This document shows positions 921 through 59,651 of a stretch of 64,000 bases of DNA, in pieces. The position numbers and the translations under genes are program-made. The notes under the pieces are model-generated. The model was given only the letters and a program-made list of their open reading frames with translations. It did not search any database and was not told the origin of the DNA. Positions within the stretch are counted from its first letter, which is position 1. Each line of letters begins with the position of its first letter. The stretch is from Candidatus Eiseniibacteriota bacterium (lineage in GTDB: Bacteria > Eisenbacteria > RBG-16-71-46), in NCBI GenBank assembly GCA_963717935.1, contig CAVQXP010000004.1:1664001-1728000 (forward strand). The letters run 5' to 3'.

Positions 921-3697
921 ATGGCCTCCAGACTCGATGCCATCCAACGCGCCAGCGCCTCGTACATCGAGGAACTGTACGCGCGGTACCGGGAAGACCC
1001 GGGCTCGGTCTCCGAGGATTGGGGCATCTTCTTCGCCGGCTTCGAGCTGGCGGGCCCGCCGCGGCCCGGTGGGGGCGTGCCGGGCCAGCCTTCGGGCGAG
1101 GTCTTCGGCCTGGTGCAGCACCACCGCATCTTCGGGCACCTCGCGGCCTGGCTCGATCCGCTGAGCGACCGCCCGCGGCTCCTGCCGTTGCTCGACCCGG
1201 TGTCCTTCGGCTTCCAGGAGGCCGACCTCGAGGCCGTGGTCTCCTGGGAGCCCTTCAAGGGCGGCGCTCGGGGCCCGTTGCGCGAACTGATCGCCGCCCT
1301 GCGCCGGACCTACTGCGACACGATCGGCGTCGAGTTCATGCGCCTGGCCGACGAGGAACGGCGCGTCTGGCTGCAGGAGCGCATGGAGCCCGTGCAGAAC
1401 CACCCGGCGATGGAGCCGGCCGAGCGCCTGCGCATCCTGCGGCAGTTGACGCTGGCGGACGGCTTCGAGGAGTTCCTGCACACGCGCTACCCGGGCCAGA
1501 AGCGCTTCTCGCTCGAGGGCTGCGGCGCGCTCATCCCGATGCTCGACGGGCTCGTCGAGGCGGCGGCCGCTTCGGGCGTGGAGCAGATCGTGCTCGGGAT
1601 GCCGCACCGCGGGCGTCTCAACGTGCTCGCCAACCTGATGGGCAAGCCCTTCGAGGACATCTTCCACGAGTTCGAGGCCACCGAGCTGCCCGAGGAGATC
1701 CAGGGACACGGCGACGTGAAGTACCACCTGGGCTACTCGACCGACCACCCGACGCGCGGCGCGGGCTGCATCCACCTGGACCTCTACTTCAATCCGAGCC
1801 ACCTGGAGTTCGTGAACCCGGTCGTGCTCGGGGCGGTGCGGGCGAAGCAGGATCGCATGGGGGATGCCGGACCGATGCGCTGCCTGCCGGTGCTGCTCCA
1901 CGGCGACGCCGCCTTCGCGGGCGAGGGTATCGTGACCGAGACGCTGGCCATGGCCGCGCTCCCGCACTACGACACGGGCGGCACGGTGCACGTCATCGTG
2001 AACAACCAGGTGGGGTTCACCACCTCGCCCGCGGACGCGCGCACCTCGCGCTATCCGACCGACGTGGCGCGGGTCGAGGACGCGCCGGTGTTCCACGTGA
2101 ACGCCGACGACCCCGCGGCGGTCGTGCACGTCATCCGGCTCGCGGTGGAGTACCGGCAGCGGTTCAAGCGCGATGTCTTCGTGGACCTGGTGTGCTTCCG
2201 CAAGCACGGGCACAACGAGCTGGACGACCCGACCTTCACCCAGCCGGTCATGTACCGGAAGGTGGCCGGGCACCCCGCGGTCTCGCGGCTCTACGCGGAG
2301 CGGCTCAAGAGCGAGGGCGTCCTCGACGACGCCGGGCTCGAGGCCCTGCGGGGCGAGCTCGCGACGGTGTTCCAGGCGGCCCACCAGCGCGCCCGTGGCC
2401 GGCGGCCCGTGCCGCCCTCGCGCGCGCTGGGCGGCGCCTGGAAGGGGTTCGAGTGGGCCGGCGAGGACTGGACGGCCGAGACGGCGCTGCCGCGCGAGCG
2501 GCTCGAGCAGGTGGCGCGCTCGCTGGCCGAGGTGCCGACCGGGTTCCATCCTCATCGCAAGGTCGCGGCCCTCGCGGCCGAGCGCGTGAAGATGCTGGAG
2601 CAGGACCGCGTGGACTGGGGGCTGGGCGAGGCGCTCGCCCTGGGCACGCTGTTGCTCGAGGGGCACCACCTGCGCCTGAGCGGGCAGGACACGGGGCGCG
2701 GCACCTTCAGCCACCGCCACGCGGTGCTGCACGACGCCGAGGACGGCCGCCTGCACGTCCCGCTGCAGCACCTGGCCGTCGGGCAGGGCCGCTTCGAGAT
2801 CTTCGACACGCCGCTCGCCGAATCGGCGCCCGTCGGCTTCGAGTACGGCTACAGCACGGCCGACCCGCAGACGCTGGTGGTCTGGGAGGCGCAGTTCGGG
2901 GATTTCGTGAACGTGGCCCAGGTCTACCTGGACCAGTTCCTGGCGAGCGCCGAGTCCAAGTGGCGGCGCATGTCCGGCCTGACGCTGCTGCTGCCCCACG
3001 GCTACGAAGGGCAGGGCCCGGAGCACTCGAGCGCGCGGCTCGAGCGCTTCCTGGAGCTCTGCGCGCGCTGCAACCTGCAGGTCGTGAACCTCACCACCCC
3101 GGCGCAGTTGTTCCACGCGCTGCGGCGCCAGATGCACCGGCGCTTCCGCAAGCCGCTGGTCATCATGAGCCCGAAGAGCCTGCTGCGGCACCGCTCGGCG
3201 GTCTCGCCCGTCCTGGACTTCACGGACGGGGCACTTCCGCACCGTGATCGACGACGCGAAGGTCGCAGGACCCCGACGCGGTGCGGGGGATCCTGCTCGC
3301 CTCCGGCAAGATCTGCTACGCCCTCGAGGAGGCACGCGCCGCGCGGCCGGACCTGCCGGCGGCGCTGGCGCGGGTCGAGCAGCTCTACCCGTTCCCGCGC
3401 GCGGAGCTCGACGCGCTGTTCCGCCGCTACCCGAACGCGCGCGAGGTGCGCTGGGTGCAGGAGGAGCCGGCCAACATGGGGGCCTGGCGCAGCACGCGTC
3501 ACCGGATCGAGGTGGCCCTGCCGCCGGGCTGGCGCCTGCGGCTCGTGGCGCGCAAGGCCTCGCCCACCCCGGCCACCGGCAATTACCATGTCCATGTCGA
3601 GCAGGAGCGCGCGCTGCTGGAGCGCGCCCTCGCGGAGTTCGGGCCCGCGCGCAAGGCGCCCGCGCCGGCGGGGCGCCGGGAAGGAGGAGCGCCGTGA
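921..3697 (+). CDS. sucA: 2-oxoglutarate dehydrogenase E1 component (two frameshifts near 3230-3270)
   Basis: Motifs [64 protein letters not shown] and [15 protein letters not shown]. The C-terminus ([10 protein letters not shown]) lies in ORF 3281..3697. Confidence 0.95.
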
Positions 3698-5022: not shown

Positions 5023-6424
<1,402 letters not shown>

Positions 6425-6556
6425 CCGGTCCACGGTGTGCCCGCCCCTCGCCGGATGCCCCCGGCGGGTGCCGCCCGGCGCTCATCGCGGGTGGATCCTT
6501 GTCCCGGGCCGGGCATCTCAGGGTTTTGGGGCAGGATTGACTGCCCGGTCCTCCAT

Positions 6557-6572
6557 TGGTAGGATTATTGCG
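6557..6572 (+). promoter_or_regulatory. Sigma54 (-24/-12) promoter
   Basis: TGGTAGGATTATTGCG has exact GG-N10-GC spacing and sits in an AT-richer patch ~135 nt upstream of the ATG at 6708. Confidence 0.65.
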
Positions 6573-6707
6573 AATGGTCCATTGAGATAAGGGTTCTGCG
6601 CTTCCCCTTCGGCCCCCCCTTGGAGCGCGGAACGAGGCCGTGTAGCTGCCAGGTCGACTCCCAAAAGGTCCGGCGCTTTGCTTCCACCAGCTCGGGAGAG
6701 ACAATCC

Positions 6708-7478
6708 ATGCGTGGTCTGATCGGGTGTCTGTTCACCCTGTTCATCGGCACCGCACTTTGTGCAGCCGTTCCGTCTCAGGCTGCCGTGGAGGTCGTCTTC
6801 GGGGATTCCTGGGATGGCCCGAGCCAGAACCTCCAGGTGATCGTGGATGGTCTTTACGGGGTGGGCCGGATCGACGTGAAGCGCGACTACCTCGGTGCGA
6901 AGGCCGATGAGCCAGACCCATGGTTCTGGGTGGACAACAAGTTCGCGGCGCTGCTCGTGAGAGAGGTGGCCGGGAACGCGGGTGCCAACCAGGTCGGCTG
7001 GTACGAGGAGACGGGCTCGATGCCCGTGCTCACGAACGACGGCGTGCGCGACGGGCTGGTGTTCGACGGCCCCGCGGGGGCGGGCGCCAGCGCGATCCTG
7101 ACCTTCACGAAGCCCATGATGCGGTTCGGCTTCTACCTGAACCCCAACGGCCCCCTCGACGCTCTCAACGCTCCCGAGCCGGAGAAGTTCTTCACGAACC
7201 GCACGTTCAACGACATCGGTCCCGACGGGAGCGGTGCGCTGCACTCGCCCACGGGCGGCGACATGCAGGTGCTGGTCTTCGACCTCTCGAATATCACGGA
7301 GGCGAACACCTGGCTCGTGTGCTTCGAGGACCTGGACTCGGGCGCCGTGCCGGGCCCGATCGGCCAGGCGCAGACCGACAACGATTTCAACGATTTCATC
7401 TTCGAAGTCAAGGCCTTCGGCGCGACGCCGGTCCAGCCGCTCTCCTTCGGCGGGCTCAAGGCGAAATACGCGCGCTGA
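6708..7478 (+). CDS. Secreted DUF4114-like protein with a C-terminal TPVQPLSFGGLKAKYAR tail
   Basis: Signal peptide MRGLIGCLFTLFIGTALCAAVPSQA; DUF4114-like FEDL...DNDFNDFIF; RBS GGGAGAG. Confidence 0.8.
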   Translation: MRGLIGCLFTLFIGTALCAAVPSQAAVEVVFGDSWDGPSQNLQVIVDGLYGVGRIDVKRDYLGAKADEPDPWFWVDNKFAALLVREVAGNAGANQVGWYEETGSMPVLTNDGVRDGLVFDGPAGAGASAILTFTKPMMRFGFYLNPNGPLDALNAPEPEKFFTNRTFNDIGPDGSGALHSPTGGDMQVLVFDLSNITEANTWLVCFEDLDSGAVPGPIGQAQTDNDFNDFIFEVKAFGATPVQPLSFGGLKAKYAR

Positions 7479-8513: not shown

Positions 8514-10929
8514 TCAGTGGATCAGGGCGAGTCTCGAAACGAAGGTCCGGCCCTCGGTCATGAGCCTCACGAAGTAGAGTCCGGCGGGCAGCGTGCGCCC
8601 GCTCTCGTCGCATCCATCCCAGGTGAGCGTGCGCTCGCCCGCGGGCTGCGTGCTGGCGACGAGGCTCCGCACCCGGCGCCCCTGCTGGTCGTAGAGCGCG
8701 AGTTCGACGTGCGCCGCGCGCGGCAGGCCGAAGCGCAGCGTGGTCGCGCCGCGCGTGGGGTTGGGCGCGGGCGGCGCCAGGGAGACCGCGCGCGGCAGCG
8801 CGGGCCCCGGCACGTCCGTGGTGCCCGAAGGCAGCAGCGTGCTGAAGCTGCTCACGTTGCCGTGCAGGTCCAGGGCGCAGAGCTTGTAGTAGTACGGCGC
8901 GCCCGCCACGTCCACGTAGCCGGTGTTGGACTGGGCCGCCACCAGGTTCGCGGGCTCCGGCACGAAGTCGGCCGTGCTGCCGCGGTAAAGCCGGTACCCG
9001 GCCAGATCGACGGCGGGATTGACCGCCCACTGCAGGATGGCGGTGCCGTCCGTGTACTCGCCGGTGAAGGGCGCGGGTGCCGGGGGCGCGAGGTCGTCCA
9101 CCGAGTAGCCCGAGTCGGGAGCGGAGGACCACCACTGGGTGCCGCCGACCGCCCAGGCCTGGACCAGGAAGGCCGTGACCGGATTGGAGTCCGCGATCGA
9201 GTCCCCGGTGGTCGGCGCGACCATGCTGTAGGCAGGCAGGTGGTAGGCCTCCTGGGCCCCGACGTACTCCCAGTAGTAGGTCAGCATGCCGGAGGTCGTG
9301 ACGAGCAGCCGACCCGGCAGGCTCGCGGCCTCGCCCGGGTCCTGCGTGAGCGTGGCGCCGCTACGGATCGCCCGGGCCGCGAGGTTGGGGGGGGCCGAGC
9401 GGAAGACGAGGTAGTTGTCTACGTTCCGGAACAGCGGGTCCACGTCGAGCGGGCTCGCGTTCCAGGAGACCTTGACCAGGCCGCCCTCGTCGTTCGGGAT
9501 GTCGCGCACGCTGGCGATGGCCGGCTCCGCGCCGAGATAGCCCCACTCGTCCACGCGCTGGGCGTAGATGTCGGAGTTGCCGCTGCGCCCGTCGTGCCAG
9601 GTGACGATGGCCCCGCACGCGCCGTCCGAGACGAGCGTGGGGTACATCTGATCGAGGATGGCGGTGCAGAGGGCCACGCCATTGGCCGTCCACTGGACCG
9701 CGCCGGTGGCCGAGATCCGCTGGGCGTAGATGTCGGAGTTGCCGCTGCGGTAGTCGTGCCAGGTGACGATGGCCCCGCCCGTCCCGTCCGAGACGATGGT
9801 GGGGTGGTACTGGGCGGCGACGCTGGTGCAGAGGGGCACGCCGTTGGCCGTCCACTGGACCGTGCCGGTGGCCGAGATCCGCTGGGCGTAGATGTCGGAG
9901 TTGCCGCTGCGGTAGTCGTACCAGGTGACGATGGCCCCGCCCGCGCCGTCCGAGACGAGGGTGGGGTAGTACTGATCGCCGGTGGCGGTGCAGAGGGCCA
10001 CGCCGTTGGCCGTCCACTGGACCGCGCCACTGGCCGAGACCCGCTGGGCGTAGATGTCGTAGCTGGTGCCGCTGCGGTAGTCGTACCAGGTGACGATGGC
10101 CCCGCCCGCGCCGTCCGAGGCGAGGGTGGGGTAGGACTGTTCGCTGGCGGCGGTGCAGAGGGCCACGCCGTTGGCCATCCACTGGACCGTGCCGGCGGCC
10201 GAGATCCGCTGGGCGTAGATGTCCCCGTTGCCGCTGCGCTGGTCCTGCCAGGTGACGATGGCCCCACCCGCGTCGTCCGAGGCGATGGTGCAGGCGTACT
10301 GATCGCTGGTGGCGGTGCAGAGGGGCACGCCGTTGGCCGTCCACTGGACCACGCCGTTGGCCGAGATCCGCTGGGCGTAGATGTCGTAGTTGGTGCCGCT
10401 GCGGTAGTCGTACCAGGTGACGATGGCCCCGCCCGCGCCGTCCGAGACGAGGGTGGGATCGTACTGGGTGGTGACGCTGGTGCAGAGGGCCACGCCGTCG
10501 GCCGTCCACTGGACCACGCCGTTGGCCGAGATCCGCTGGGCGTAGATGTCGTAGTTGCCGCTGCGGTAGTCGTACCAGGTGACGATGGCCCCGCCCGCGC
10601 CGTCCGAGGTGATGGTGGGGCCATCCTGCTCGCCGGTGGCGGTGCAGAGGGCCACGCCGTCGGCCGTCCACTGGACCGCGCCGTTGGCCGAGATCCGCTG
10701 GGCGTAGATGTCGTAGCTGGTGCCGCTGCGGTAGTCGCGCCAGGTGACGATGGCTCCGCCCGCGCCGTCCGAGGTGATGGTGGGGCTGTACTGAGAGCCC
10801 GATGGCGGTGCAGACCGGCACGTTGACGGCCGGCTCGTGGGGCCAGGCGCTCCATGCCGGGCGCGGGGCTGCTGCAAGGGCGGTGGCAAGGAGCGCGATG
10901 GCGAGCAGGGGGACTGGGGTCCGGATCAT
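8514..10929 (-). CDS. Secreted tandem-repeat (beta-propeller-like) protein with C-terminal FlgD-Ig/T9SS-CTD-like domain (frameshift near 10800)
   Basis: Signal peptide MIRTPVPLLAIALLATALAAA in one frame. Eight SDGAGGAIVTWxDxRSGxxDIYAQR repeats, an FnIII-like segment and a PNP...LYDQQGRRVRSL...WDG...GLYFVRL tail in another frame. Confidence 0.85.
9545..10800 (-). repeat. Intragenic tandem repeat, ~8 units of 162-165 bp
   Basis: CTGGGCGTAGATGTC and CCAGGTGACGATGG recur at ~162-165 bp spacing; units encode 54-55 aa. Confidence 0.9.
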
Positions 10930-11030: not shown

Positions 11031-11059
11031 AGTATGCACCTGCGGGGCAGGGGATTCAA
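11031..11059 (-). promoter_or_regulatory. Sigma70-type promoter for the repeat protein gene
   Basis: Minus strand TTGAAT-N17-CATACT, ~100 nt upstream of the ATG at 10929. Confidence 0.5.
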
Positions 11060-11087
11060 CGATCGAGTTCGATGGATGCGCGCCCGC

Positions 11088-14064
11088 TCACGCCCCGGGC
11101 TTGTAGATGACGCCGCGGTTCTGGCGGCCGTTCATCTTCACGAGCAGCGGCTGCTCGAAGCGCAGCAGGCGCACGTGCCCGTCCACGGCCTCGGCCGGCT
11201 GTGCGGCGAGCCAGTCCCAGTCCACGAAGCCTTCGCCATGTTCCGGGTTGGCGGTGAAGTAGCCGATCTGGAACGAGGTCAGGTTCTGGAAGAAGTGGCT
11301 GCCCTGCGAGGGCGTGACGCGGAAGTCGCGGAACCCGGCCTCGACGATGACGCGCGCTCCGGAGATCTCGTCCCAGGTGACGGGGATGCCGAGCCACGGG
11401 TCGGTCGAGCCCCAGCGCCCCACGCCGATCAGCAGGTAGGGCGCGCCGCGCGCGAGCAGCTCGGCGTTGAAGCGCGCCACGGCGCGGGCGGCCTGGGGGC
11501 TCTGGGCGCGGTCGAAGCGGTGGAAGTCCACCACCACGACGTGCCGCAGGTCGTCCACCTGGCCGTTGCCCAGCACCTTGGGGCTCAGGCACAGGAGCCG
11601 CGCGGGATCCGTGTCGTCGATCTCGAGCGCGGCGGTCTCGCGCGCGAGCACGAGCGGGCGCATCTGCAGGAAGCCGAACTCGCGCGGCGCCCCGGGGGGC
11701 ACGTCGAGGCGCACCGCGAACTCGATCTCGGTGGCGCGGTTCATGCCGTGTCCAGCCATGTCGAGCAGGGCCTCGAGGATCTCGGCGAGCGGGAAGACGC
11801 CGTGCTTGAGCACGGGCGCGAAGGAGACCAGCCGCACGCCGGGCCGCGACAGCCCGTCGTAGACGACGCTGTTCTCGTGCGAGTAGGTGGAGCCGAGCGC
11901 GAAGAGCGTCCCGTCCGCCTCGGCGACCTCGAGGTCGAAGCGGCTCTCCCGCAGTTCCCGCTCGGGGTCCCCGCTCGCGGCGGGGTCCAGCTCCAGCGCC
12001 CAGAACTGGCGCTGCGAGTTCCTGACCATGTCCTTCACGGACGAGAACTGCAGCAGGTGCTGCGGGTAGCGCGGGCAGAAGGTCAGGCACTTCTCGCCCT
12101 CGACCACCGAGCGGCCGAGTCCGAGCGCCACGGCGGCCACGCCGTCCTCGGACTTGAGCGGGAGGGTGGGATAGAAGTTGAAGGAGCGGGCCACCCCGGA
12201 GAAGATCCGGATAGAAGCGCCCGCCGTGCGGCGCGCCGACGACCTTCTGCAGGATGACCGCCATCTTCTCTTCTTCGAGCCGGTAGGGCGTGGCCCGCAG
12301 GTAGCCCCGCGCGTGACGGCTGAAGGTGGAGGCGTACACGCGCCGGATGGCGTCCAGGAGCCGCTTGAGCCGCACGCGCGGGTCGGGGTTGTGGTTCGGC
12401 AGCATGAAGGTCTCGTAGACCCCGGTGAACGGCTGGTACTGCGAGTCCTCGAGCAGGCTCGACGAACGCACCGCCAGCGGGCAGCGCACGGCGTCGAGGA
12501 ACGCGGTCAGGTCGGCGAGCACGTCGTCGGGGAAGCGGGCGGCGAGGAAGCGCCGCTGGATCTCGCCTTCGTCGTTCGAGTGCAGGGCCAGGTCCAGCAG
12601 GTCGTTCTCGACCAGGAAACGGTCGAACACGTCGGTGGCCAGCACCACCGCCGCCGGCACGCCGATGTGCACGTCGGGGAAGCGCCGGTTCAGCTGGCGC
12701 AGGCCGAGCAGCCGCCGCACGAAGGCGAGGCCCCGCGCCTTGCCGCCGAGCGAGCCCCCGCCGATGCGAAGGAAGAAGGGGGCCGCGGGGTCGAACGTCC
12801 TGGGGTCGAAGTCCCCGACCAGCGATTCGGCCTGCTCGCGCCGGTACCCGGCGATCGAATCGATCAGGTCCTCGCGCAGCTCTTCGAGGCTGGCGTAGTC
12901 CGGGACCTTGCGCGGGCGCAGCCGGTGGGCCAGCGCGAACTCGGTGCGGGCGGTGAGCCAGTTGGAGAAGTGGTTGCGCTCGGCGTGGTAGCCGACGCTC
13001 TCCGCGGGCACGGTGTGCAGCTTGGCTTCGAGCGACTTGAGGTCGGCGGCGCGATCCACCTCGCGCCCGTCGGGCAGCCGGAAGACGAAATCGCCGAAGG
13101 CGAACTGCTCGACCAGGAAGCGGCGCAGGTCCTGGAGCATGGCGTCCGAGCCCTTGAGCAGGAAGGGCATGCCCGCCGCCTGCGCGCGCGCGGCGAACTC
13201 CACGCGGCCGGACTGGATCAGGATGGGCAGGTCGAACGCGTGCTGGCGCGCCATGCGGGCCAGCTCGAAGCCGGCCTCGCGGGACAACTCGCGGCCGCGC
13301 GGGAACTCCACGTCGGTGATGATGCCCAGCAGGTGGTCGCGGTGGGCCAGGAAGCGCTCCCAGGCCTCCTCGAAGGTCGTGCACAGGAGGATCTTGGGGC
13401 GGGCGCGCAGCCGCACCAGCTTGTGGGAGAGGTTCACGCCCTCGCTGATGAGCCGCTCGGACTGGCGGATGATCTCGGTGTAGATGGTGGGCAGGAACGA
13501 GGAGTAGTAGCGGATGTTGTCCTCGACCAGGAGGATGACGCGCACCCCCGTCGCGCGCGTGTCGTGCGCCGCGTTCCGCTGGTCCTCGATGGTGTTGACG
13601 ATGGCGAGCAGGATGCGCGCATTGCCCTGCCACAGGAAGCAGCGCTCGATGCCCGTGGTGTCGGCGCGCGCGACGAAGTCGCCGAGTTCCCGGTCGTCGT
13701 AGGCCAGCACCACGACCGGCACGTCCAGGCCGGCCGCGCGGACCGCGCGCGCCAGGTCGGTCGCGTCCATGTCGCCGGTCTGGATCGTGGTGACGATGAG
13801 GTTGAAGCGCGGTTGCTCGCGGGCCAGGGCCAGCGCCTCGGCGCCGCTCGAGACGTGGGTGATGCCCGGCGTGCGATGCAGGTTGAGGTCGAGGTACTCG
13901 CTCAGGATGAGCTCGTTCAGCCGCCCGTCCTCCTGCAGCGTGAAGGCGTCGTAGAGGCTGGAAACGAGCAGGATGTCCTGCACCCGCCAGGGCATCAGGT
14001 CCTGGAAGCCCTGCAGGGTGCCGCCCGGCGCAGGGTCCGACAGGCGGGGCGCCGCGTCATCCAC
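11088..14064 (-). CDS. PEP/pyruvate-binding (PPDK_N) domain protein with N-terminal receiver-like domains (frameshift near 12200)
   Basis: ILLVSSLYD and ILLVEDN receiver-like segments; GSLGGKARGL, AVRSSSLLED, EKMAVILQKVVG; C-terminal GRWGSTDPWLGIPV...PSQGSHFFQNL in ORF 11088..12194. Confidence 0.85.
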
Positions 14065-14079
14065 GGGTCACCTCCGAAG

Positions 14080-14114
14080 AAAAAGGCGCGGAGTGGAAGC
14101 CTCCACCCCGCGCC
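14080..14114 (-). terminator. Intrinsic terminator after gdhA
   Basis: Minus strand GGCGCGGGGTGGAGGCTTCCACTCCGCGCC hairpin followed by TTTTT. Confidence 0.75.
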
Positions 14115-14135
14115 CGTGCATCGTGAAGATCCGCT

Positions 14136-16575
<2,440 letters not shown>

Positions 16576-24336: not shown

Positions 24337-27300
24337 ATGAAGAAGTCCCTCTGCCTGGCCCTCGCCATCCTGCTCGGTTCGGTCATCTGGACGGTTGTGG
24401 CGCCCGGTGCCGCATCGGCCTCGACGACGATCGAACGCGAGTTCCGCTATGGCCGGGACCAGTTCGAGCTGACCCGGAATGCCGACGGCACGACTCACGT
24501 GGAGATGAGCTCGGCCACGCGGGAAGGCACCGCCGGCCGTCCGGACCTGCCCCTGGTGGGTGAGCGCGTGGAGCTGCCTCTGGGGTTGCGGCTCGCAGCG
24601 GTGGAGATCGTCGGGCTCGAGACGGTCCCGCTGGCGCAGGGCGTGCGGTTGCCGAGCGCGATGCTCATGCGCCCCGGGGTGGACGGTCTCGAGCGCTCGG
24701 CGCCGGACCCGGCGATCTTCGGGCATGCGGGCTTCGTCCCCGAGCAGATGGTGCAGGTCGGTGCGCAGGGGTTCGAGCGCGGGCGGAATCTGGCCTACGT
24801 CGTGGTCGCGCCCGTGCGCTGGAACCCGGCGACGGGCGAACTGGAGCGGGTCGAGCGGGTGCGCGTGCGCCTGGTGCTCGAGTCCACCTCGGAGCGGCCG
24901 CTGGAGCGCGAACGCGTGGTGCCCGAGTGGGAGGACGGCGGCGGCGGTGGGGCTGCTCCCGGCTCGCGCGCGGCGCGGCCGACGGCCCTGGTGGATGGCA
25001 CACGTCTGGCGGAGCCCTTCAAGGCCACGCAATTGCCCTCGTTGCTGGGCAGCCCGGTCGCCTATGTCATCGTCACGAACGACGCGATGGCTCCGGCCTT
25101 CCAGCAGCTCGCGGACTGGAAGACGCAGAGCGGCGTCCCCGCCGTGGTGCGCACGATCTCGTTCATCAAGCAGGAGTACCCATTCGGCGCCGATGACGCC
25201 GAACGCGTGCGCTCCTTCATCCGAGACGCCTACTCGCGCTGGGGCGCGAAGTGGGTCCTCCTGGGGGGCGATACCGACGTGGTTCCCACGCGTTTCGCCC
25301 ACACCACCTTCTACGGTGGCGAGTCCATCTCCACGGACCTCTACTTCTCGTGCCTGGATGGCAACTGGAACGCCGACGGGGACAGCCTCTACGGCGAGGG
25401 CGCCGTCAGCTACCCGGTGGCCGCGGGCGACTCCGCCGACCTGCTGCCCGAGGTCTATGTGGGGCGCGCCCCCGCCAGCACGCTCGCCGAGGCGCAACTG
25501 TTCGTGGACAAGGCCATGAAGTACGAGCGGGAGCCCGTAGCCGACTACATGAACACCATCATATCCTTCGCCGAGGTGCTCTTCCCGCAGACCTGGTACC
25601 CGGGCATGGCGACCCAGCTCGACGGGGCCGAACTCATCGACTACGACTTGCTGCCCATCCTGGACACCGTGCCCTGGGTCCACTCCGCGCGGCTCTACGA
25701 GAACTACACCGACGCGCGCTGGCGCCCGGGCGCGCTCCCCGAGTCGCGGGCCCGGGCGATCGATTCGCTGAACGTGGGCTACAACATCGCGGTGCACGTC
25801 GGGCACGGCTACCGCAACACCATGAACATGGGGGACATCGGTCTCACCAACACCGAGGCGATCGCGCTCACGAACGGCGACCGACTGACGAACCTGTACG
25901 CCATCAACTGCAACTCCACGGCAATCGATTACCCGTGCGTCGCCGAGGCGTTCATGAAGGCCCCCAACGGCGGCACCGTCACCGTCGTCGGTTCCACGCG
26001 GTACGATTTCCCGACCTACGGCCGCCAGTACAAGAAGGAGTACTTCGAGCTCCTGTACCAGGAGGATGTCACCGCCGTCGGCGAGGCGCAGGCGCGGCAG
26101 AAGCTGCCGTTCGTGAGCCTGTCCGCCTACGATGGCGCGCACCGCTGGACGCAGATGTCACTGGTCCTGCTGGGTGACCCGGAGCTGCACATCTACACGG
26201 CCACGCCGCGCACGCTCAGCGTCGTGCACCCGGCCTCGATGCCGGTGAGCGATTCGACGCTGGCCGTGAACGTGGCGGTGGACGGCGTGCCGCTCGACAG
26301 CGCGCGGGTGACGGTCTACCGGGCGGACCACGAGTTCGCGAGCGCCCTCACCGACGCGGCCGGGAACGTGACGCTGGCGGTCCGGCCCGACACCCTCGGC
26401 GCCCTGACCCTGACGGTGACCGGGCTCAATTGCCGGCCCTACCAGGCCTCGGTTTCCCTGGTGGCTGGCGCCTACCCCGCGCTGGCGGGGTGCGCGGTCC
26501 TCGTCGACGACAGCGGCGCGGACGGCACCTCCGGCAATGGCAACGGGATCTGGGACGCCGGGGAGACGGTCGCCCTGTACCCGATGCTCCGGAACAACGG
26601 CGGCGCGGACGCGACGTCCGTGTCGGGCGGGTTGCTGACGACCGACGGGCTGGTCACCCTCCTGCAGCCCGCCGCGAGCTACGGCACGATCGCCGTGGCG
26701 GACAGCGCGAGCCCGTCTCCGGGCCTGCTCGTCGGCCTTCCGTTCACGGCGGAGGACCAGCGCGAGGTCCCCTTCGATCTGTACCTGACCGATGGCACGG
26801 GGCGCACGTACCTGGAGCGCTTCCAGCTGACGGTTCGGGCTCCCGAGCTGCGGCACTCCGCGCACGTCATGGTGGACGTGGGCGGGAACCTCGACGGACG
26901 CCCCGACCCGGGCGAGACGGTGGCCTGCTACATCAAGCTGCGCAACCTGGGCACCGGGGTCGCCCAGGGCGTGTCGGCCCGGCTGCGCAATCTCGACGGG
27001 CTCGCCACGGTGACCGATAGCATGGCATCGTGGGCCGACATCCAGCCCGGCGAGGAACTGACGGGGGACGCGTTCAAGTTCACGCCGACGAGCACCGCTG
27101 CCACACTCCTGCTGGTGGTCTCGGACCAGTACGGGGAGCGGCTGCAACAGACGCTGGACATCCTGTACCCGTCCATGCCACAGGGGCTGCTGAGCCTCGG
27201 TGCGGGGGGCAGGATCTCGCTCACCTGGGCGAAGGTCGGGGACACGGGACTGATGGGCTACAACGTCTACCGCGCCACCGCGTCCGCCGGGCCCTTCGTC

Positions 27301-29064
27301 AAGGTGACCCCGGTGCCCACCGACCGCACGGCCTACTTCGTGGACGACGGGCTGGCGCCGCTGACGCGCTACTACCACAAGGTCACGTCCGTGGACCTGT
27401 CCGGCAACGAGTCGACGCCCTCGGCGGCGGTGTCCGCCTGGACGAACCCGCCGGCGCATCCCAGTTTCCCGATCCAGACCCGCCGCCTGTCGCCCGCCCC
27501 CGTGGCGGTGGACCGCATCTACGACGGCTACCCGATGGACATCGTGGCCGGTGCCGACGTGCTCTACCTGTGGCATCCGGACGGCAGCGCCCCGGTGGAC
27601 GCCGACGGCTCCGCGTTCACTTCGGGGGATTTCACGACCCAGGGCAGCTACTACGCGGGCGGTCCCACGGTCGCCGACCTCGACGGTGGCGACAAGGAGA
27701 TCCTCGGGTCCACCTGGGATAGCCACACGATCTACGCGTTCGACCTCGAGGGCCAGGCGAAGCCGGGTTGGCCGGTCACGGTCGCCGACGCCATGTACGC
27801 GGCCGTGGCCGTTGCCGACCTGCAGGGCGACGGGCCGAAGGAGGTCGTGGTGGGCTCGAACGGGTACGACATCTACGCGCTGCAGGCGAACGGTGCCGAG
27901 CTGATGGACGGCGACAACAATCCGGCGACCGTGGGCGTGTTCAAGCACACGGGGGCCATGTACAACTACGGCTCGCCGGCGCTGGCGCCGATCCAGAACG
28001 ACGGCACGAACGCGATCGTCTACGGTGCGTCGGACGCGCGCCTCTACGTCTGGCGGTACGACGGCAGCAACGTGCCCGGCTTCCCCGCGACCCTCGGGGG
28101 CGGCGTGCGCAGCTCGCCTGCGGTGGGCAGCCTGGACGGGCCCGCTGGCCAGCTCAGCATCGTGGTCCCTGCGATGTGCGACTCCCTCTACGTGTTCGGT
28201 GCCGACGGATCGCGCCGGCCGGGCTTCCCGGTCTACTGCCGCATGGAGGCGAACGGCCGGAATCCCTCGCCCGCATTGGCCGACATGGACGGTGATGGCT
28301 ACCTCGACATCGTCCAGGCCAACACCATCGGCGGTCTCTACGTGTGGGACCGCAACGGGGCCATCGTCCCGCCGTGGAACAACATCCGCTACAGCGCGCT
28401 CACGAGCTGGGCGACGGATTGCAGCCCGGTGGCGGCCGACATCGACGGTGACGGCCATCCGGACGTCCTGATGGGCGAGGCGAGCGGCCAGCTGACCGCG
28501 TTCTCCGGCGCTGACGCCAGCATGCTGCCCGGGTTCCCCATCCAGCTCGCGGGCGACGTGTGTGGCTCGCCCGCACTGTGTGACTGTGACGGTGACGGGA
28601 AGACCGAGATCGTGGTCGCCGGCCTGGACCTGACGGTCTACATGTGGGACTACGACTTCCCGTTCTCGCCCGGGCAGGTCCCGCCGTGGCCGCAGTTCCA
28701 CCACGACCCCGCGCGCACGGGCTATGCGGCGACCCCGATCGTGGTGGGGACGGAGGAGGAGACCCCGGTCCTGCCGCGCGCGCTGGAGCTGGCGGCCCCC
28801 GCGCCGAACCCGGCGAGGGGCGGAACGCGGCTCTGGTACGGCGTTCCTGCCGACCGCGCGGGAGACGTGCTCGAGCTGGCGATCTACGACCTCGCCGGCC
28901 GCCGGGTGCGCACCCTGCAGAGCGGCCGGGCCGAGCCGGGGCGGCACTCCGTGTCCTGGGACCTGCGCGACGCGGCGGGGGCGCCGGCGCATGCCGGGGT
29001 GTACTTCGCCCGCTTCTCGCTGGGCGCGGAGGCCTGTTCGCGGAAGCTCGTCGTGGTCCGATAG
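24337..29064 (+). CDS. C25 family (gingipain-like) cysteine peptidase with FnIII, FG-GAP repeats and a C-terminal FlgD-Ig domain
   Basis: Signal peptide; propeptide GRPDLP; YVIVT...LADWKTQSG, WVLLGGD, TDLYFSCLDG, VYVGRAP; catalytic HVGHG and INCNS; LLGDP; ADLDG/ADMDGDG/ADIDGDG repeats; PNP...IYDLAGRRVRTL...WDL...GVYFARF tail. Confidence 0.9.
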   Translation: MKKSLCLALAILLGSVIWTVVAPGAASASTTIEREFRYGRDQFELTRNADGTTHVEMSSATREGTAGRPDLPLVGERVELPLGLRLAAVEIVGLETVPLAQGVRLPSAMLMRPGVDGLERSAPDPAIFGHAGFVPEQMVQVGAQGFERGRNLAYVVVAPVRWNPATGELERVERVRVRLVLESTSERPLERERVVPEWEDGGGGGAAPGSRAARPTALVDGTRLAEPFKATQLPSLLGSPVAYVIVTNDAMAPAFQQLADWKTQSGVPAVVRTISFIKQEYPFGADDAERVRSFIRDAYSRWGAKWVLLGGDTDVVPTRFAHTTFYGGESISTDLYFSCLDGNWNADGDSLYGEGAVSYPVAAGDSADLLPEVYVGRAPASTLAEAQLFVDKAMKYEREPVADYMNTIISFAEVLFPQTWYPGMATQLDGAELIDYDLLPILDTVPWVHSARLYENYTDARWRPGALPESRARAIDSLNVGYNIAVHVGHGYRNTMNMGDIGLTNTEAIALTNGDRLTNLYAINCNSTAIDYPCVAEAFMKAPNGGTVTVVGSTRYDFPTYGRQYKKEYFELLYQEDVTAVGEAQARQKLPFVSLSAYDGAHRWTQMSLVLLGDPELHIYTATPRTLSVVHPASMPVSDSTLAVNVAVDGVPLDSARVTVYRADHEFASALTDAAGNVTLAVRPDTLGALTLTVTGLNCRPYQASVSLVAGAYPALAGCAVLVDDSGADGTSGNGNGIWDAGETVALYPMLRNNGGADATSVSGGLLTTDGLVTLLQPAASYGTIAVADSASPSPGLLVGLPFTAEDQREVPFDLYLTDGTGRTYLERFQLTVRAPELRHSAHVMVDVGGNLDGRPDPGETVACYIKLRNLGTGVAQGVSARLRNLDGLATVTDSMASWADIQPGEELTGDAFKFTPTSTAATLLLVVSDQYGERLQQTLDILYPSMPQGLLSLGAGGRISLTWAKVGDTGLMGYNVYRATASAGPFVKVTPVPTDRTAYFVDDGLAPLTRYYHKVTSVDLSGNESTPSAAVSAWTNPPAHPSFPIQTRRLSPAPVAVDRIYDGYPMDIVAGADVLYLWHPDGSAPVDADGSAFTSGDFTTQGSYYAGGPTVADLDGGDKEILGSTWDSHTIYAFDLEGQAKPGWPVTVADAMYAAVAVADLQGDGPKEVVVGSNGYDIYALQANGAELMDGDNNPATVGVFKHTGAMYNYGSPALAPIQNDGTNAIVYGASDARLYVWRYDGSNVPGFPATLGGGVRSSPAVGSLDGPAGQLSIVVPAMCDSLYVFGADGSRRPGFPVYCRMEANGRNPSPALADMDGDGYLDIVQANTIGGLYVWDRNGAIVPPWNNIRYSALTSWATDCSPVAADIDGDGHPDVLMGEASGQLTAFSGADASMLPGFPIQLAGDVCGSPALCDCDGDGKTEIVVAGLDLTVYMWDYDFPFSPGQVPPWPQFHHDPARTGYAATPIVVGTEEETPVLPRALELAAPAPNPARGGTRLWYGVPADRAGDVLELAIYDLAGRRVRTLQSGRAEPGRHSVSWDLRDAAGAPAHAGVYFARFSLGAEACSRKLVVVR

Positions 29065-50298: not shown

Positions 50299-52113
50299 AT
50301 GCGCGTGTTGTTCGTGACCCAGTATTTCCCGCCCGAGACCGGGGCGGCGCCCGCGCGGGCGCTGCACTTCGCGCGCGCTCTGGAGCGCGCCGGGCACGAG
50401 GTGCGCGTGGTGACGGGTCTGCCGAACCATCCCTCCGGCGTGGTGCAGCCCGCCTACCAGCGGGTGCGCCGCGCGAGCGAGCGGGACGGCGGGATCACGG
50501 TCGAGCGGGTGTGGCTGCACGCCACGCCGCGCAGGACGCCGGTGACGCGCCTCTGGAACCACCTCTCCTTCGCGCTCTCCGCACTGGGCCCCGCGCTCGC
50601 CGGGCCGCGGCCCGGCGTGGTGCTGGCGACCATGCCGCCGCTCTTCCTGGGAGCGACCGCCTGGCTCGTGGCGCGCTGGCACGGTGCTCCGCTCGTGATC
50701 GATTGCCGCGACGATTGGCCCGCGGCGGCCGTGGCGCTGGGCGAGATGCGCGCCGGGTTCGCCACGCGCGTGCTCGGGGGGCTCGCGCGGTTCCTCCAGC
50801 GCCGCGCGGAGCGCGTGCTCGCCGTCACGCCCGGGATGCTGCGCGCCTTCGAACGGGCCGGTCTCGACGCGGGCCGTCTGGTGCTCGTCACGAACGGCGC
50901 CGACACCGATCTGTTCCGGCCGGCGCCGGCGGGGCGGCCCGGTGGCTCCGGCCGGCCGTTCACGGTGCTGTATGCGGGCACGCACGGCCTGATCCACGGC
51001 ATGGAAGCGCTGCTCGACGCCGCAGAGCGCCTGCGCGCGCGCCGCGACGTCCGCTTCCTGCTGGTGGGCGACGGCGTGGCCAAGCCCGGGCTGGAGCGGC
51101 GCGCGCGCGAGGCCGGGCTGGAGCAGGTCGAGTTCCGTCCGAGCGTGGCGCCCGAGCGGCTGGTCGAGGAGATCCACGCGGCCGACGTGTGCGTGGCGAC
51201 GACGCGGGACCATTCCTTCTGCGGCGAGACCATCCCGGTCAAGCTCTTCGACTACCTGGCCTGCGGGCGCCCGGTGGTCGCCGCGGTGAGCGGGGACGCG
51301 GCGCGCGTGGTCGAGGAGTCGGGCGGGGGCGTGGTGGTCCCCCCGGGCGACGGGGCAGCCCTGGCGGAGGCGCTCGCGGCGCTCGCGGCCGACCCGGCGC
51401 GGTGCGCGGCCCTCGGCGCGGCCGGGCCCGCGTTCATCGAGGAGCGCTACTCGCGACGGGCGGTGGGGACGAAGCTCGTGGCGTTGCTGGAGCAGGTCTT
51501 GCGCCTGGCACGCGGGCGGGACGTGGCGCCCCGGCCGGCGGGACCCGGCGGCGCCGCCAAGCGCGCGGTGGACCTGGTCGTGGCCGGCGTCCTGCTCGTG
51601 GTCCTGGCGCCGCTCCTCGTCGCGCTCGCGCTCGCGGTCCGGCTCGACTCGCCCGGGCCGGCGCTCTTCCGCCAGCGGCGAGTGGGCCGCGCCTCACGCG
51701 AGTTCACCATCCTCAAGTTTCGCACCATGCGGGTGGGCACGCCGGACCTGGCCTCGCACCTCATGGGGCCGGGCTCGGACCGGGTCACGCGCGTCGGGCG
51801 GTGGTTGCGACGCACGAGCCTGGACGAGTTGCCGCAGTTGCTGAACGTGCTGGTCGGCGACATGACGCTGGTGGGACCACGGCCCGCGCTGCACAATCAG
51901 CACGACCTGGTCGCGCTGCGCCAGCAGGCCGGCGTGGACGCGCTCAAGCCCGGCGTGACCGGCTGGGCGCAGATCCACGGGCGCGACGACCTCCCGCTGG
52001 ACCGGAAGGTGGCCTACGACCACTGGTACCTCGAGCATGTCTCCTTCGGGCTCGACCTGGCCATCGCGCTGCGCACGCCCTTCGCGCTGCTCTCCTCGCG
52101 GGGGGTGTTCTGA
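50299..52113 (+). CDS. WbuB-like GT4 glycosyltransferase fused to a sugar (phosphoglycosyl) transferase
   Basis: TQYFPPE, LPNHP, PVKLFDYLACG, then KRAVDL, KFRTM, SLDELPQLLNV, VGPRP, KPGVTGWAQ. Confidence 0.9.
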   Translation: MRVLFVTQYFPPETGAAPARALHFARALERAGHEVRVVTGLPNHPSGVVQPAYQRVRRASERDGGITVERVWLHATPRRTPVTRLWNHLSFALSALGPALAGPRPGVVLATMPPLFLGATAWLVARWHGAPLVIDCRDDWPAAAVALGEMRAGFATRVLGGLARFLQRRAERVLAVTPGMLRAFERAGLDAGRLVLVTNGADTDLFRPAPAGRPGGSGRPFTVLYAGTHGLIHGMEALLDAAERLRARRDVRFLLVGDGVAKPGLERRAREAGLEQVEFRPSVAPERLVEEIHAADVCVATTRDHSFCGETIPVKLFDYLACGRPVVAAVSGDAARVVEESGGGVVVPPGDGAALAEALAALAADPARCAALGAAGPAFIEERYSRRAVGTKLVALLEQVLRLARGRDVAPRPAGPGGAAKRAVDLVVAGVLLVVLAPLLVALALAVRLDSPGPALFRQRRVGRASREFTILKFRTMRVGTPDLASHLMGPGSDRVTRVGRWLRRTSLDELPQLLNVLVGDMTLVGPRPALHNQHDLVALRQQAGVDALKPGVTGWAQIHGRDDLPLDRKVAYDHWYLEHVSFGLDLAIALRTPFALLSSRGVF

Positions 52114-53012
52114 TGCAGCGCCCGGGCCCGACGGCGGGCGCGACGGTGTCCGCGACGGGGCGCGGGTGGACGGAACACGCCGCGGCGTACGCGAGCGCGG
52201 CGCTGGTCGCGCTCCTGCTCGGACTCATCTACCATCGCACCGTCGCGGGGCTCTGGGCCATGTGGACCACGAACGACAACTACTCCCACGGACCGCTGGT
52301 GCCGCTGGTGTCGCTGGCGCTGATCGTGTCCCGGCGCGAGCGCCTGCGCGCGCTGCCGCGGACGGGCGACTGGCTCGGGTTCGGGCTCGTGGCCCTGGCC
52401 TGCGCGCTCCAGGTGCTGGGCGTGCGCGCGGACGTCCTCACCCTGCAGGGCTGGTCGCTCGTGCTGGTGCTCTACGGGCTCGCTCTCGCGCTCCTGGGCG
52501 GACCGCTCACGCGCTCGCTCGCCTTTCCCATCGGCTACCTGGTCTTCATGCTCACCTTTCCGCCGTTCGTGATGAACCGGCTCAGCTTCGCCCTGAAGGA
52601 GGTGGCCGTGCAGGCCGCCGCGCACGCCTCCGAGATGCTGGGCGTGACGCTGCAGCGCAGCGGCATGACTCTCTGGCTCGCCAGCGGCGCGCTCGAGATC
52701 GAGAACCCCTGCAGCGGCCTTCGCTCGCTGCTGGCGATGCTGGCGACCGGCGTGCTCTTCGCGTCGCTGCTGCCTGCGGGCTGGTGGCGGCGCGCCCTGC
52801 TCGTGCTGCTGGCCGTGCCGATGGCCATCGCGGGGAACGCCCTGCGCATCACCCTGCTCGTGGTGATGGCTCACTACGTTGGCATCAAGCAGGCACTGGG
52901 GGTGTTCCACGACGTGTCGGGCTACCTGACGTACGGCCTCTCGCTCGCCGGGCTGCTGGCGGCCTGGGCGCTGCTCCAGTCGCGCGGTCCCGCGCCGGCG
53001 CGCCGGCCGTGA
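52113..53012 (+). CDS. Exosortase (EpsH/XrtA family)
   Basis: ~8 TM helices; NYSHG; catalytic triad segments PCSGLRS, GNALRI and FHD. Confidence 0.92.
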   Translation: MQRPGPTAGATVSATGRGWTEHAAAYASAALVALLLGLIYHRTVAGLWAMWTTNDNYSHGPLVPLVSLALIVSRRERLRALPRTGDWLGFGLVALACALQVLGVRADVLTLQGWSLVLVLYGLALALLGGPLTRSLAFPIGYLVFMLTFPPFVMNRLSFALKEVAVQAAAHASEMLGVTLQRSGMTLWLASGALEIENPCSGLRSLLAMLATGVLFASLLPAGWWRRALLVLLAVPMAIAGNALRITLLVVMAHYVGIKQALGVFHDVSGYLTYGLSLAGLLAAWALLQSRGPAPARRP

Positions 53013-58211: not shown

Positions 58212-59651
58212 GCCGCGAGAAGGTCCTGATCGTCGACGACGAGGAAGCCATCCTGAGCCAGCTTCGCTGGGGACTTCAGGAGGAATACGACGTGCTGACC
58301 GCGTCCACGCCCGAGGAGGCGCGGCGCCAGCTGCGGGAGGAGCGCCCCAGCGTGGTGACGCTCGACCTGACGCTGCGCTCCGGTGGCGGCCCCGAGGACG
58401 GCCTGCAACTCCTCGACGAGATCGTGGACCAGTATCCGCTGACCAAGGTGATCATGGTCACCGGGAACGACGACCCGCAGAACGCCCTGCTCGCGATCCA
58501 CCGGGGCGCGGTGGACTGGTACTCCAAGCCGATCGAGCTCGACGAGCTCCGGGGCATCCTGCGGCGGGCGCTCCACGTGCGCTCGATCGAGCAGCTGCGG
58601 GGCGGCGCGGTGCTCTCCGGGCCGAAGCGCTACCACCGGCTGGTGGGGGAGTCCGAGGCGATCCGCCGGGTGTTCGCGCTCGTCCAGCGCGTGGCCGGGA
58701 CCGACGCGACGGTGCTGATCACCGGCGAGAACGGCTCCGGCAAGGAGCTGGTGGCCCACGCCATCCACACGGCCGGCGCCCGGCGGACCGGGCCGTTCGT
58801 GCCCATCAATTGCGGGGCCATCCCGGAGCAGTTGCTCGAGAGCGAATTGTTCGGGCACGAGCGCGGCGCCTTCACCGACGCCCACCGCATGCGCGAGGGC
58901 AAGCTGGAGCTGGCGGAGGGGGGCACCATCTTCCTGGACGAGATCGCGGAGCTGCCCACGCACCTGCAGGTGAAGCTGCTGCGCTTCCTGCAGGACAAGG
59001 TGGTCGAGCGCGTGGGCGGGCGGGAGCAACGCAAGGTGGACGCTCGCGTCGTGGCCGCCACCAACCAGGATCTCAAGGCGGCGATCGCGGCGGGGCGCTT
59101 CCGCGAGGATCTCTATCTACCGGCTGAGCGTCGTGAACATCGCGGTGCCGCCGCTACGCGAGCGTGGCGACGACCTGCGGCTGCTGGCGGAGTTCTTCCT
59201 CGGCTTCTACGCGATGCACCACAAGCGCCGCATCCGCGGCTTCACGCAGGCCGCGCTGCGGGCGGTGCAGGCGCACCCCTGGCCCGGGAACGTGCGCGAG
59301 CTGGAGAATCGCGTGCAACGCGCGGTGATCCTGGCGCAGGGCGCCCACGTGCGGCCCTCGGACCTCGAGCTGGAGGCGGGGCTCGAGGACGGGCCGCAGA
59401 GCCTGCAGGGCGCCCGCGACGAGGCGGAGCAGCGGCTGCTGGTCGAGTCGCTCACACGCAACGCCGGCAACATCACGCGTGCGGCACGCGACATCAGGGT
59501 GAGCCGGCCCACCTTCCACGACCTGCTCCGCAAGCATGGCATCGAGGTGGGGCGCTACCGCAAGCCTGACGTGCCTGGGCCGGTCGAGCCGGAGGGGGAC
59601 GGGGAGGCCGAGGGCGACGAGCCGGGCGGGCCGGCGGAGGAGCGGCCGTGA
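58208..59651 (+). CDS. prsR: Sigma54-dependent response regulator (PrsR-like; frameshift near 59115)
   Basis: VLIVDDE, VTLDL, GENGSGKE, ESELFGHERGAFTDA, FLDEI, WPGNVRELEN, Fis-type HTH SRPTFHDLL. Confidence 0.88.

Follow-up and report, generated by a model that had tools for sequence, protein, structure and literature searches.

Type IX secretion (T9SS) is established in Bacteroidota. PorV carries the type A CTD (TIGR04183 or PF18962) through SprA/Sov, and PorU takes it off. PEP-CTERM is an inner-membrane signal. According to the parts of the source that were accessible, type A CTDs are recognized mostly by shape, as a folded β-sandwich, and an almost invariant lysine near their C-terminus contacts PorV (PMC10994853). 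Accessible excerpts of two further papers place PorU cleavage at X/(GSA)(VLI) (PMC4560394) and describe a TTTACA-containing motif upstream of the sigma54 site at PEP-CTERM genes (Haft et al., PMC1569441). In the same portion of the literature, the T9SS signals considered are folded domains, and short C-terminal sorting signals have a transmembrane helix. Mainly open-access literature, covered as listings and the starts of abstracts and without supplements, contained no description of the soluble C-terminal tail presented here.

The window, that is, the whole analyzed stretch of 64,000 nucleotides, derives from an Eisenbacteria genome (G000, the source genome; 3.0 Mb, 93% complete). Its region from 6557 to 7478 holds one gene, encoding a secreted DUF4114 protein (Table 1), with orthologues in 22 of 41 relatives. 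An earlier note on this DNA had described a signal peptide, a DUF4114-like domain and a C-terminus without a transmembrane helix, and each of these is present. The end of the signal peptide at ...VPSQA (residue 25) was called by eye. The DUF4114 match (E of 1.1e-6) reaches 29.9 bits compared to the Pfam gathering cutoff of 27; an NCBIfam scan of the protein gave no match. No transmembrane helix follows the signal peptide, with a maximum 19-residue Kyte-Doolittle value of 1.12 and a value of -0.16 for the last 19 residues. The AlphaFold model predicts a confident β-rich domain (mean pLDDT of 85.6), a linker with a pLDDT of <50, and a terminal helix of 9 residues (model residues 220 to 228) in blocks of pLDDT 52 to 59. 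A Foldseek search of this model against the PDB gave no fold match at an E of ≤0.001. The C-terminus of the protein reads ATPVQPLSFGGLKAKYAR. Among the best 120 homologues listed, 112 match the tail pattern, and the Phe variant is stable in this protein; seven of the eight nonmatching homologues show small deviations, and one is apparently frameshifted.

The tail gene lies 3′ of a dihydrolipoamide dehydrogenase gene (window positions 5111 to 6424), with its own promoter in the gap, and the same gene order is apparent in at least seven relatives (L152, L153, L157, L158, L159, L161, and L166). Elsewhere in the window (24337 to 29064, plus strand), a C25/gingipain-like protein of 1,575 residues has a type A CTD-like end, with its His/Cys motif pattern unmatched. 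Several genes are split over frames, namely, those for 2-oxoglutarate dehydrogenase E1, glutamate dehydrogenase, and PrsR (window positions 921 to 3697, 11056 to 15565, and 58211 to 59651) and sprA (G000 C4:1327229-1333287). These frame splits are probably assembly indels and not true pseudogenes.

Table 1. Positions of the tail gene, its predicted signals, and related genes (window positions unless a contig is given)
Feature	Position	Strand	Remarks
Secreted DUF4114 protein gene	6708..7478	+	ATG 6708, stop 7478, 256 aa; conserved in Eisenbacteria
Predicted sigma70 promoter TTGACT-17-TAGGAT, extended -10 TG	6537..6565	+	1 site found, 0.1 expected
Sigma54-like GG-N10-GC match TGGTAGGATTATTGCG	6557..6572	+	GG 6558-6559, GC 6570-6571; overlaps the sigma70 -10 box
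Predicted RBS GGGAGAG before ATG 6708	6694..6700	+	From sequence
Predicted Sec signal peptide, residues 1-25	6708..6782	+	From sequence; homologue N-termini equivalent
DUF4114 (PF13448) match	7122..7412	+	Within a β-rich domain of ~210 aa
Tail TPVQPLSFGGLKAKYAR	7425..7475	+	Flexible linker and short helix (both predicted); a TWG-type tail with Phe
Cargo gene with a T9SS type A CTD, at 1 kb from the tail gene	8514..10889	-	TIGR04183 31.1 bits, cutoff 23
Second PorU-like C25 peptidase	G000 C4:946024-950310		Intact His and Cys motifs
PEP-CTERM protein, 105 aa	G000 C4:585406-585723 (L015:2406-2723)	-	Only one found in the genome

The 17-residue tail of the window protein is a variant of a family motif, P-V-x-x-[ST]-[ST]-[WF]-G-x-[ILV]-K-x-x-[YF]-R-stop. 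The proteome scan proposed in the earlier note shows that it is not unique, as [ST][WF]G..K..[YF] ends 15 of 24,028 stop-to-stop frames of the source genome; the strict motif is found at no internal position of these frames. A matrix built from the 15 tails gives them scores of 39.8 to 54, followed by two degenerate lipoprotein tails (26.5 and 14.6) and then background. The glycine, lysine, tyrosine, and last arginine are invariant across the 15 tails, with the lysine five residues from the end. The carriers are unrelated to each other and feature NHL repeats, lamin-tail domains, or DUF4114, while most belong to no family. No Pfam or NCBIfam model matches the tail in the window protein and the 16 other tail genes scanned. 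The earlier note had proposed to test for an enrichment of signal peptides; a hydropathy heuristic assigns one to 12 of the 13 carriers of full length, compared to 492 of 2050 other genes. Most carriers are small single domains, with a median size of 238 residues (range of 172 to 425; n = 78).

At the DNA level, a search pattern for the tail gives 3,910 matches, spread over 146 of the 151 phylum genomes with up to 77 in each; this pattern misses TTC-coded Phe, leaving the window gene itself uncounted. G031, G059, and G128 are among the genomes without the tail. With 15 terminal open reading frames, no internal occurrence, and only 0 to 2 matches per genome for the reversed-pattern control, the tail exceeds chance by a wide margin. 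A scan of all GTDB species with the strict pattern gives at least 125 tail loci, 80 of which carry titles. Among these 80 titled loci listed, most belong to Eisenbacteria and unclassified bacteria, 9 are Poribacteria records, and Krumholzibacteriia and Latescibacterota are represented by 1 record each; a few low-copy records under other names may be misbinned, and none of the 80 is Bacteroidota by name. Five Poribacteria genomes have 36 to 109 copies each of a tail variant, compared to 0 to 5 in controls, and a small sample of five Poribacteria CTD proteins contains no internal tail. The tail profile gave no match to PDB sequences, and an atlas search with the tail alone returned one weak cluster (0.80). 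The tail is a strictly terminal, multicopy peptide on secreted proteins of several phyla.

The strict conservation of the glycine and lysine at a fixed distance from the C-terminus suggests a protein pocket. Such a pocket might belong to a periplasmic or surface scaffold other than a T9SS shuttle, to which the uncleaved tail would dock noncovalently, comparable to a dockerin. The predominance of small single domains among the carriers, the predicted flexible linker, and the degenerate tail on two lipoproteins agree with docking. On the other hand, no candidate scaffold was found, and the tail stands exactly where the CTD would be, also after a pre-CTD Ig-like domain (see below), which makes docking an unlikely explanation. 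The two lipoproteins (L013:2457-3146, plus strand, and L014:2382-3128, minus strand) end in TWGQILALYY and TWGELNALYAR, both lacking the lysine. One of their genes sits between trmD-like and rplS-like genes; the other follows genes for an unannotated probable outer-membrane barrel of 714 residues and a second lipoprotein.

The predicted helix could also act as a short amphipathic anchor holding periplasmic proteins at the membrane surface without a dedicated reader. The C-terminal anchor of Escherichia coli PBP5 serves as the model for this type of attachment. The net charge of about +2 and a helical hydrophobic moment of 0.43 compared to 0.34 in shuffles are consistent with an anchor, but the β-strand moment is equally high (0.48 compared to 0.34), the helix covers only ~9 residues, and the mean hydrophobicity is -0.07. 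Furthermore, the invariant glycine and lysine exceed the needs of a lipid anchor, and anchoring of this kind is considered improbable.

The earlier note had placed the tail gene under a sigma54 promoter with control by PrsR and had proposed the exosortase of the window as one possible processing enzyme. The GG-N10-GC site is indeed present, though it overlaps a predicted sigma70 promoter (Table 1). Its score of 14.1, obtained with matrix weights approximated from the consensus, ranks among the 16 highest for 2115 upstream regions. Among the tail genes, however, only 2 of 17 have a sigma54-like site with a score of ≥10, compared to 87 of 2115 genes overall. Orthologous upstream regions, with the window gene included, retain TTG...TAnnnT in 18 of 21 cases (shuffles give a mean of 1.4 and a maximum of 5) but GG-N10-GC in register in only 3 of 21; a stricter sigma54 pattern is found in 1 of 21 orthologues compared to 0.8 in shuffles. 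No TTTACA-type box is present upstream of the window tail gene. The GG-N10-GC match is probably coincidental, and judging from these upstream regions, the tail gene is likely transcribed from the sigma70 promoter, independently of PrsKR.

The exosortase (52113 to 53012), EpsI, PrsK (over the cutoff), and the frame-split PrsR were found in the window, as the earlier note had stated, in an exopolysaccharide locus 45 to 53 kb from the tail gene, and rpoN is present in the genome. The genome scan likewise confirms the lack of a PEP-CTERM protein in the window and reveals one canonical PEP-CTERM protein elsewhere. This protein of 105 residues consists essentially of a Pro/Gly-rich linker and the signal; upstream of its gene lie TGTATTACA and a GG-N10-GC site. 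A whole-genome TIGR02595 search, in which the control was also silent, missed it. The combination of the TTACA box with a sigma54 site is matched only once in the whole genome, upstream of this PEP-CTERM gene, which points to a likely client that belongs to the exosortase/PrsKR system itself. The 105-residue protein is likely the main PrsR target and the exosortase substrate.

Across the 151 genomes of the phylum, exosortase is present in 108, PrsK in 81 (E of ≤1e-60), and SprA in 140. The 118 genomes with a completeness of at least 90% include 87 tail-rich genomes (≥10 tails) and 28 tail-poor genomes (≤5 tails). Exosortase, PrsK, and SprA occur in 65, 63, and 84 of the tail-rich genomes, respectively, compared to 19, 1, and 24 of the tail-poor genomes; 22 tail-rich genomes are without exosortase and 24 are without PrsK. 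Both exosortase and PrsK are missing from 11 of the 87 tail-rich genomes, including all 6 of family f2, which have 42 to 62 tails. In Poribacteria, exosortase was found in 0 of 9 genomes, and in a sample of the phylum, it was found in 1 of 41. As these are draft genomes, single absences are weak, and clade-wide absences are stronger. The tail is not codistributed with exosortase. A profile against PrsK does show the contrast that the earlier note looked for, with PrsK far more frequent in tail-rich than in tail-poor genomes, but this contrast comes almost entirely from family f7, and 24 tail-rich genomes have no PrsK. Family f7 (e.g., G012, G031, G055, and G116) mostly keeps SprA and has 26 to 62 type A CTD matches, with only 0 to 5 tails and no PrsK at the threshold used; it forms a natural contrast group for the reader of the tail.

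A role of the tail as a nontransmembrane PEP-CTERM substitute, cut by the window exosortase and encoded by genes driven by PrsR and sigma54, would draw on the presence of exosortase, EpsI, PrsK, PrsR, and rpoN, on the occurrence of PEP-CTERM on this domain in other bacteria, on the high sigma54-like score at the window gene, and on the PrsK contrast. The PEP-CTERM protein of the genome has the only TTACA-plus-sigma54 site found, however; orthologues conserve the sigma70 and not the sigma54 elements; exosortase and PrsK are absent together from part of the tail-rich genomes; and the tail lacks a transmembrane segment. The genome profile largely refutes this role, which is now very improbable. 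Exosortase as the reader of the tail was rejected on the genome profile and the missing transmembrane segment, and sigma54/PrsR control of the tail family was rejected on the scores, the orthologous upstream regions, and the lone box site at the PEP-CTERM gene.

A search with the domain of the window protein, deprived of its tail, gave 88 representatives. The C-termini were read in the 58 that reach or near the domain end, the 30 left out being mostly fragments: 35 show the tail, 10 show PEP-CTERM, 8 show a type A CTD, and 5 show other ends. The switch point is the same in all forms, with ...DLVVEIRA-NSPV followed by SIDDD-CTD or KTEEATWGELKSRFGQ. Three of the eight CTD forms were scanned, and those three pass TIGR04183. 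The proposal that the tail substitutes for PEP-CTERM in this lineage is supported with regard to the slot on the homologous domain but not with regard to a full replacement, as a PEP-CTERM protein is still encoded in the genome. A second module is an Ig-like domain with PVELSSF at its start. Behind it stands a type A CTD at 13 of 29 loci, a tail of the W/F-G/A-x-x-K type at 15, and neither at 1; these classes were assigned by reading (automatic labels were 14/3/12), and several loci are paired from one genome. Genome G183 contains both the CTD and the tail form. In the Poribacteria genome G151, a family of 38 copies has open frames of mostly 1,100 to 2,200 residues (e.g., L207:1097-5509, minus strand; L213; and L230), and the three copies inspected end in the PVELSSF Ig-like domain with a TFG tail; G188 has 29 copies of the domain. 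In one Poribacteria genome, a gene combining the PVELSSF domain with the tail adjoins sprA; this was considered as a meaningful linkage and dismissed, since the gene belongs to the 38-copy family and the adjacency is probably due to chance.

Judged by these C-termini, the tail is interchangeable with two known sorting signals. Because one of them, PEP-CTERM, is an inner-membrane signal, the swap points to a slot for sorting signals but does not identify the machine that reads the tail. In the source genome, 6 of 14 tail genes have a CTD gene no more than 3 kb away, compared to 25 of 265 other secreted-type genes (Fisher P of 0.002), a proximity that could reflect hotspots of secreted-protein genes. 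With a high degree of confidence, the tail is taken to be some type of signal for sorting to, or anchoring in, the envelope. As it is common to thousands of unrelated exported proteins and sits at the slot of two known signals, it likely serves as a hitherto undescribed address label for the cell surface. A tag for a tail-specific protease or periplasmic chaperone, setting turnover or folding instead of location, would agree with the strictly terminal position and with the exported PPIases that share a conserved cluster with tail genes; the interchange with two established surface-sorting signals makes such a tag highly unlikely.

The source genome encodes a PorU over the cutoff beside porV, three PorV/PorQ-family barrels in all, located at G000 C4:1848996, C4:999883, and C5:17807, and SprA (in several frames of the assembly) and has 42 type A CTD matches. 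Type A CTD matches are present in 80 of 80 genomes tested, and the FlgD_ig-like PF13860 is the type A CTD form in these genomes. SprA and PorV matches were obtained in five of five test genomes, including Poribacteria, Krumholzibacteriia, and Latescibacterota records. Searches for GldM in G000, G032, G012, G151, and G171 gave no match, with the positive control also silent; SprA, PorV, and C25 peptidases are present in those of these genomes that were tested for them. The tail carriers have a Sec signal peptide and an extreme C-terminal signal in genomes encoding SprA, PorV, and PorU. Since many type A cargoes already explain SprA, PorV, and PorU, their cooccurrence with the tail is not specific.

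The core of the second PorU-like peptidase has matches in 141 of 151 genomes at an E of ≤1e-20, the weakest of which may be the other PorU. Within 40 loci around this gene, 25 tails are found where 5.1 would be expected; one or more tails occur at 13 of these loci, compared to 4.7 expected, in windows placed towards the upstream side and without a matched control locus. This enrichment largely goes back to one ancestral gene cluster with exported PPIases, which also appears in a Latescibacterota record. Two of the five tails of the tail-poor genome G116 are located at this locus. Of seven C25 loci in Poribacteria, none has a tail gene nearby. The tail linker, P-[VT]-[PAS]-[VT]-E, resembles the PorU site in some members. 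In 158 tails, a set biased by the TTWG search pattern, the residue matching the postcleavage position is Pro in 48% and A, S, or G in 35%.

The best explanation, on balance a probable one, describes the tail as a modular mini-CTD of 17 residues that is addressed to the SprA/PorV/PorU system, with the second PorU-like peptidase as a possible cleaving enzyme. Here, the protein would be exported by Sec to the periplasm, as the predicted signal peptide suggests, where the cargo domain would fold and leave the tail free as a flexible linker with a short helix. A PorV-family barrel or a related adaptor would then read the W/F-G-x-hydrophobe-K-x-x-Y/F-R end, followed by the passage through SprA across the outer membrane, a step suggested by the swap with type A CTDs. 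In the last step, a PorU-like C25 peptidase, possibly the second paralogue, would cut the P/A/S-V/T-E linker, and the cargo may be released or anchored.

Several observations count against this reading. Family f7 keeps the machinery and its 26 to 62 CTD matches, yet it has only 0 to 5 tails. A helix of 10 residues, as predicted for the tail, cannot copy the folded β-sandwich of a CTD recognized by shape. The proline that is commonest at the position matching the PorU site lies outside the published consensus. A more far-reaching version, held only tentatively and with more doubt than belief, regards the tail as a new class of T9SS signal replacing the whole CTD, read by a PorV-family protein and cut by the second PorU-like peptidase, in a simplified T9SS that possibly lacks the known motor, on thousands of surface proteins in four lineages (Eisenbacteria, Poribacteria, Krumholzibacteria, and Latescibacteria).

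Further genes of the source genome resemble T9SS parts. The two additional PorV/PorQ-family barrels lie in operons (G000 C5:17807-24396 and C4:997078-1005615) that also contain a TonB-dependent-receptor-like gene and encode a protein whose end is a degenerate CTD-like strand (GKFxIV/VIR); the barrels and these proteins possibly form dedicated shuttle-cargo pairs. The operon at G000 C4:1844709-1861243 contains porU, porV, an M6-like CTD protein, two unannotated probable β-barrels, an NHL protein, and larger outer-membrane genes, with a similar order in G171 and in G172 (to the contig end). Its members are candidates for further T9SS-like parts.

Three results are new here: one cargo domain swaps among three kinds of C-terminal signal, a swap also takes place after the PVELSSF domain, and the exosortase/sigma54 reading is removed. 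Of the options raised in the earlier note, a separate export system fits best, with the tail as a real, repeated, and modular signal candidate on Sec-exported proteins. A soluble peptide of 17 residues that swaps with both types of signal would, if confirmed, be a new design of sorting signal and would label much of the secreted proteome, now mostly annotated as hypothetical, of abundant uncultured phyla. It would also provide a minimal probe of SprA/PorV cargo recognition outside Bacteroidota and perhaps, as a tool for engineering, an export tag of very small size. The negative result matters as well, as it gives the exosortase/PrsKR locus a separate PEP-CTERM protein as its likely client.

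In comparison with known systems, the cargo domain scores above the Pfam threshold of DUF4114 (PF13448), a family without an assigned function, and its model has no solved-fold match at an E of ≤0.001. Like LPXTG, GlyGly-CTERM, MYXO-CTERM, and WGxxGxxG-CTERM, the tail is located near the C-terminus in multiple copies per genome, but these tripartite signals, as far as the available part of the preprint describes them, combine a motif with a transmembrane helix and an arginine cluster, whereas the tail has no such helix (bioRxiv 10.1101/2023.06.07.544157). With PEP-CTERM (TIGR02595 or PF07589; exosortase PF09721), the tail shares its nature as a short, modular, multicopy C-terminal signal, the junction on DUF4114-domain homologues, a proline-containing start, and a basic end; it differs in having no PEP motif, transmembrane segment, exosortase tracking, conserved sigma54 site, or TTACA box. 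No match to TIGR02595 or PF07589 was obtained for the window protein and for the 16 further tail genes scanned, in contrast to the true PEP-CTERM protein, which does match. The type A CTD differs from the tail as a β-sandwich of 70 to 100 residues compared to ~17 residues with a predicted short helix, and the tail matches neither TIGR04183 nor PF18962 and commonly has proline in its linker. Tail carriers, with their median of 238 residues, are also smaller than the CTD proteins of the source genome, which mostly have 500 to 1300 residues. Both signals nevertheless occupy the extreme C-terminus of Sec-exported proteins without a transmembrane helix and have many unrelated carriers per genome. 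They also share the junction on homologous cargo, a conserved lysine near the end, the machinery in the genomes tested, and a linker of small, hydrophobic, and acidic residues ahead of the signal.
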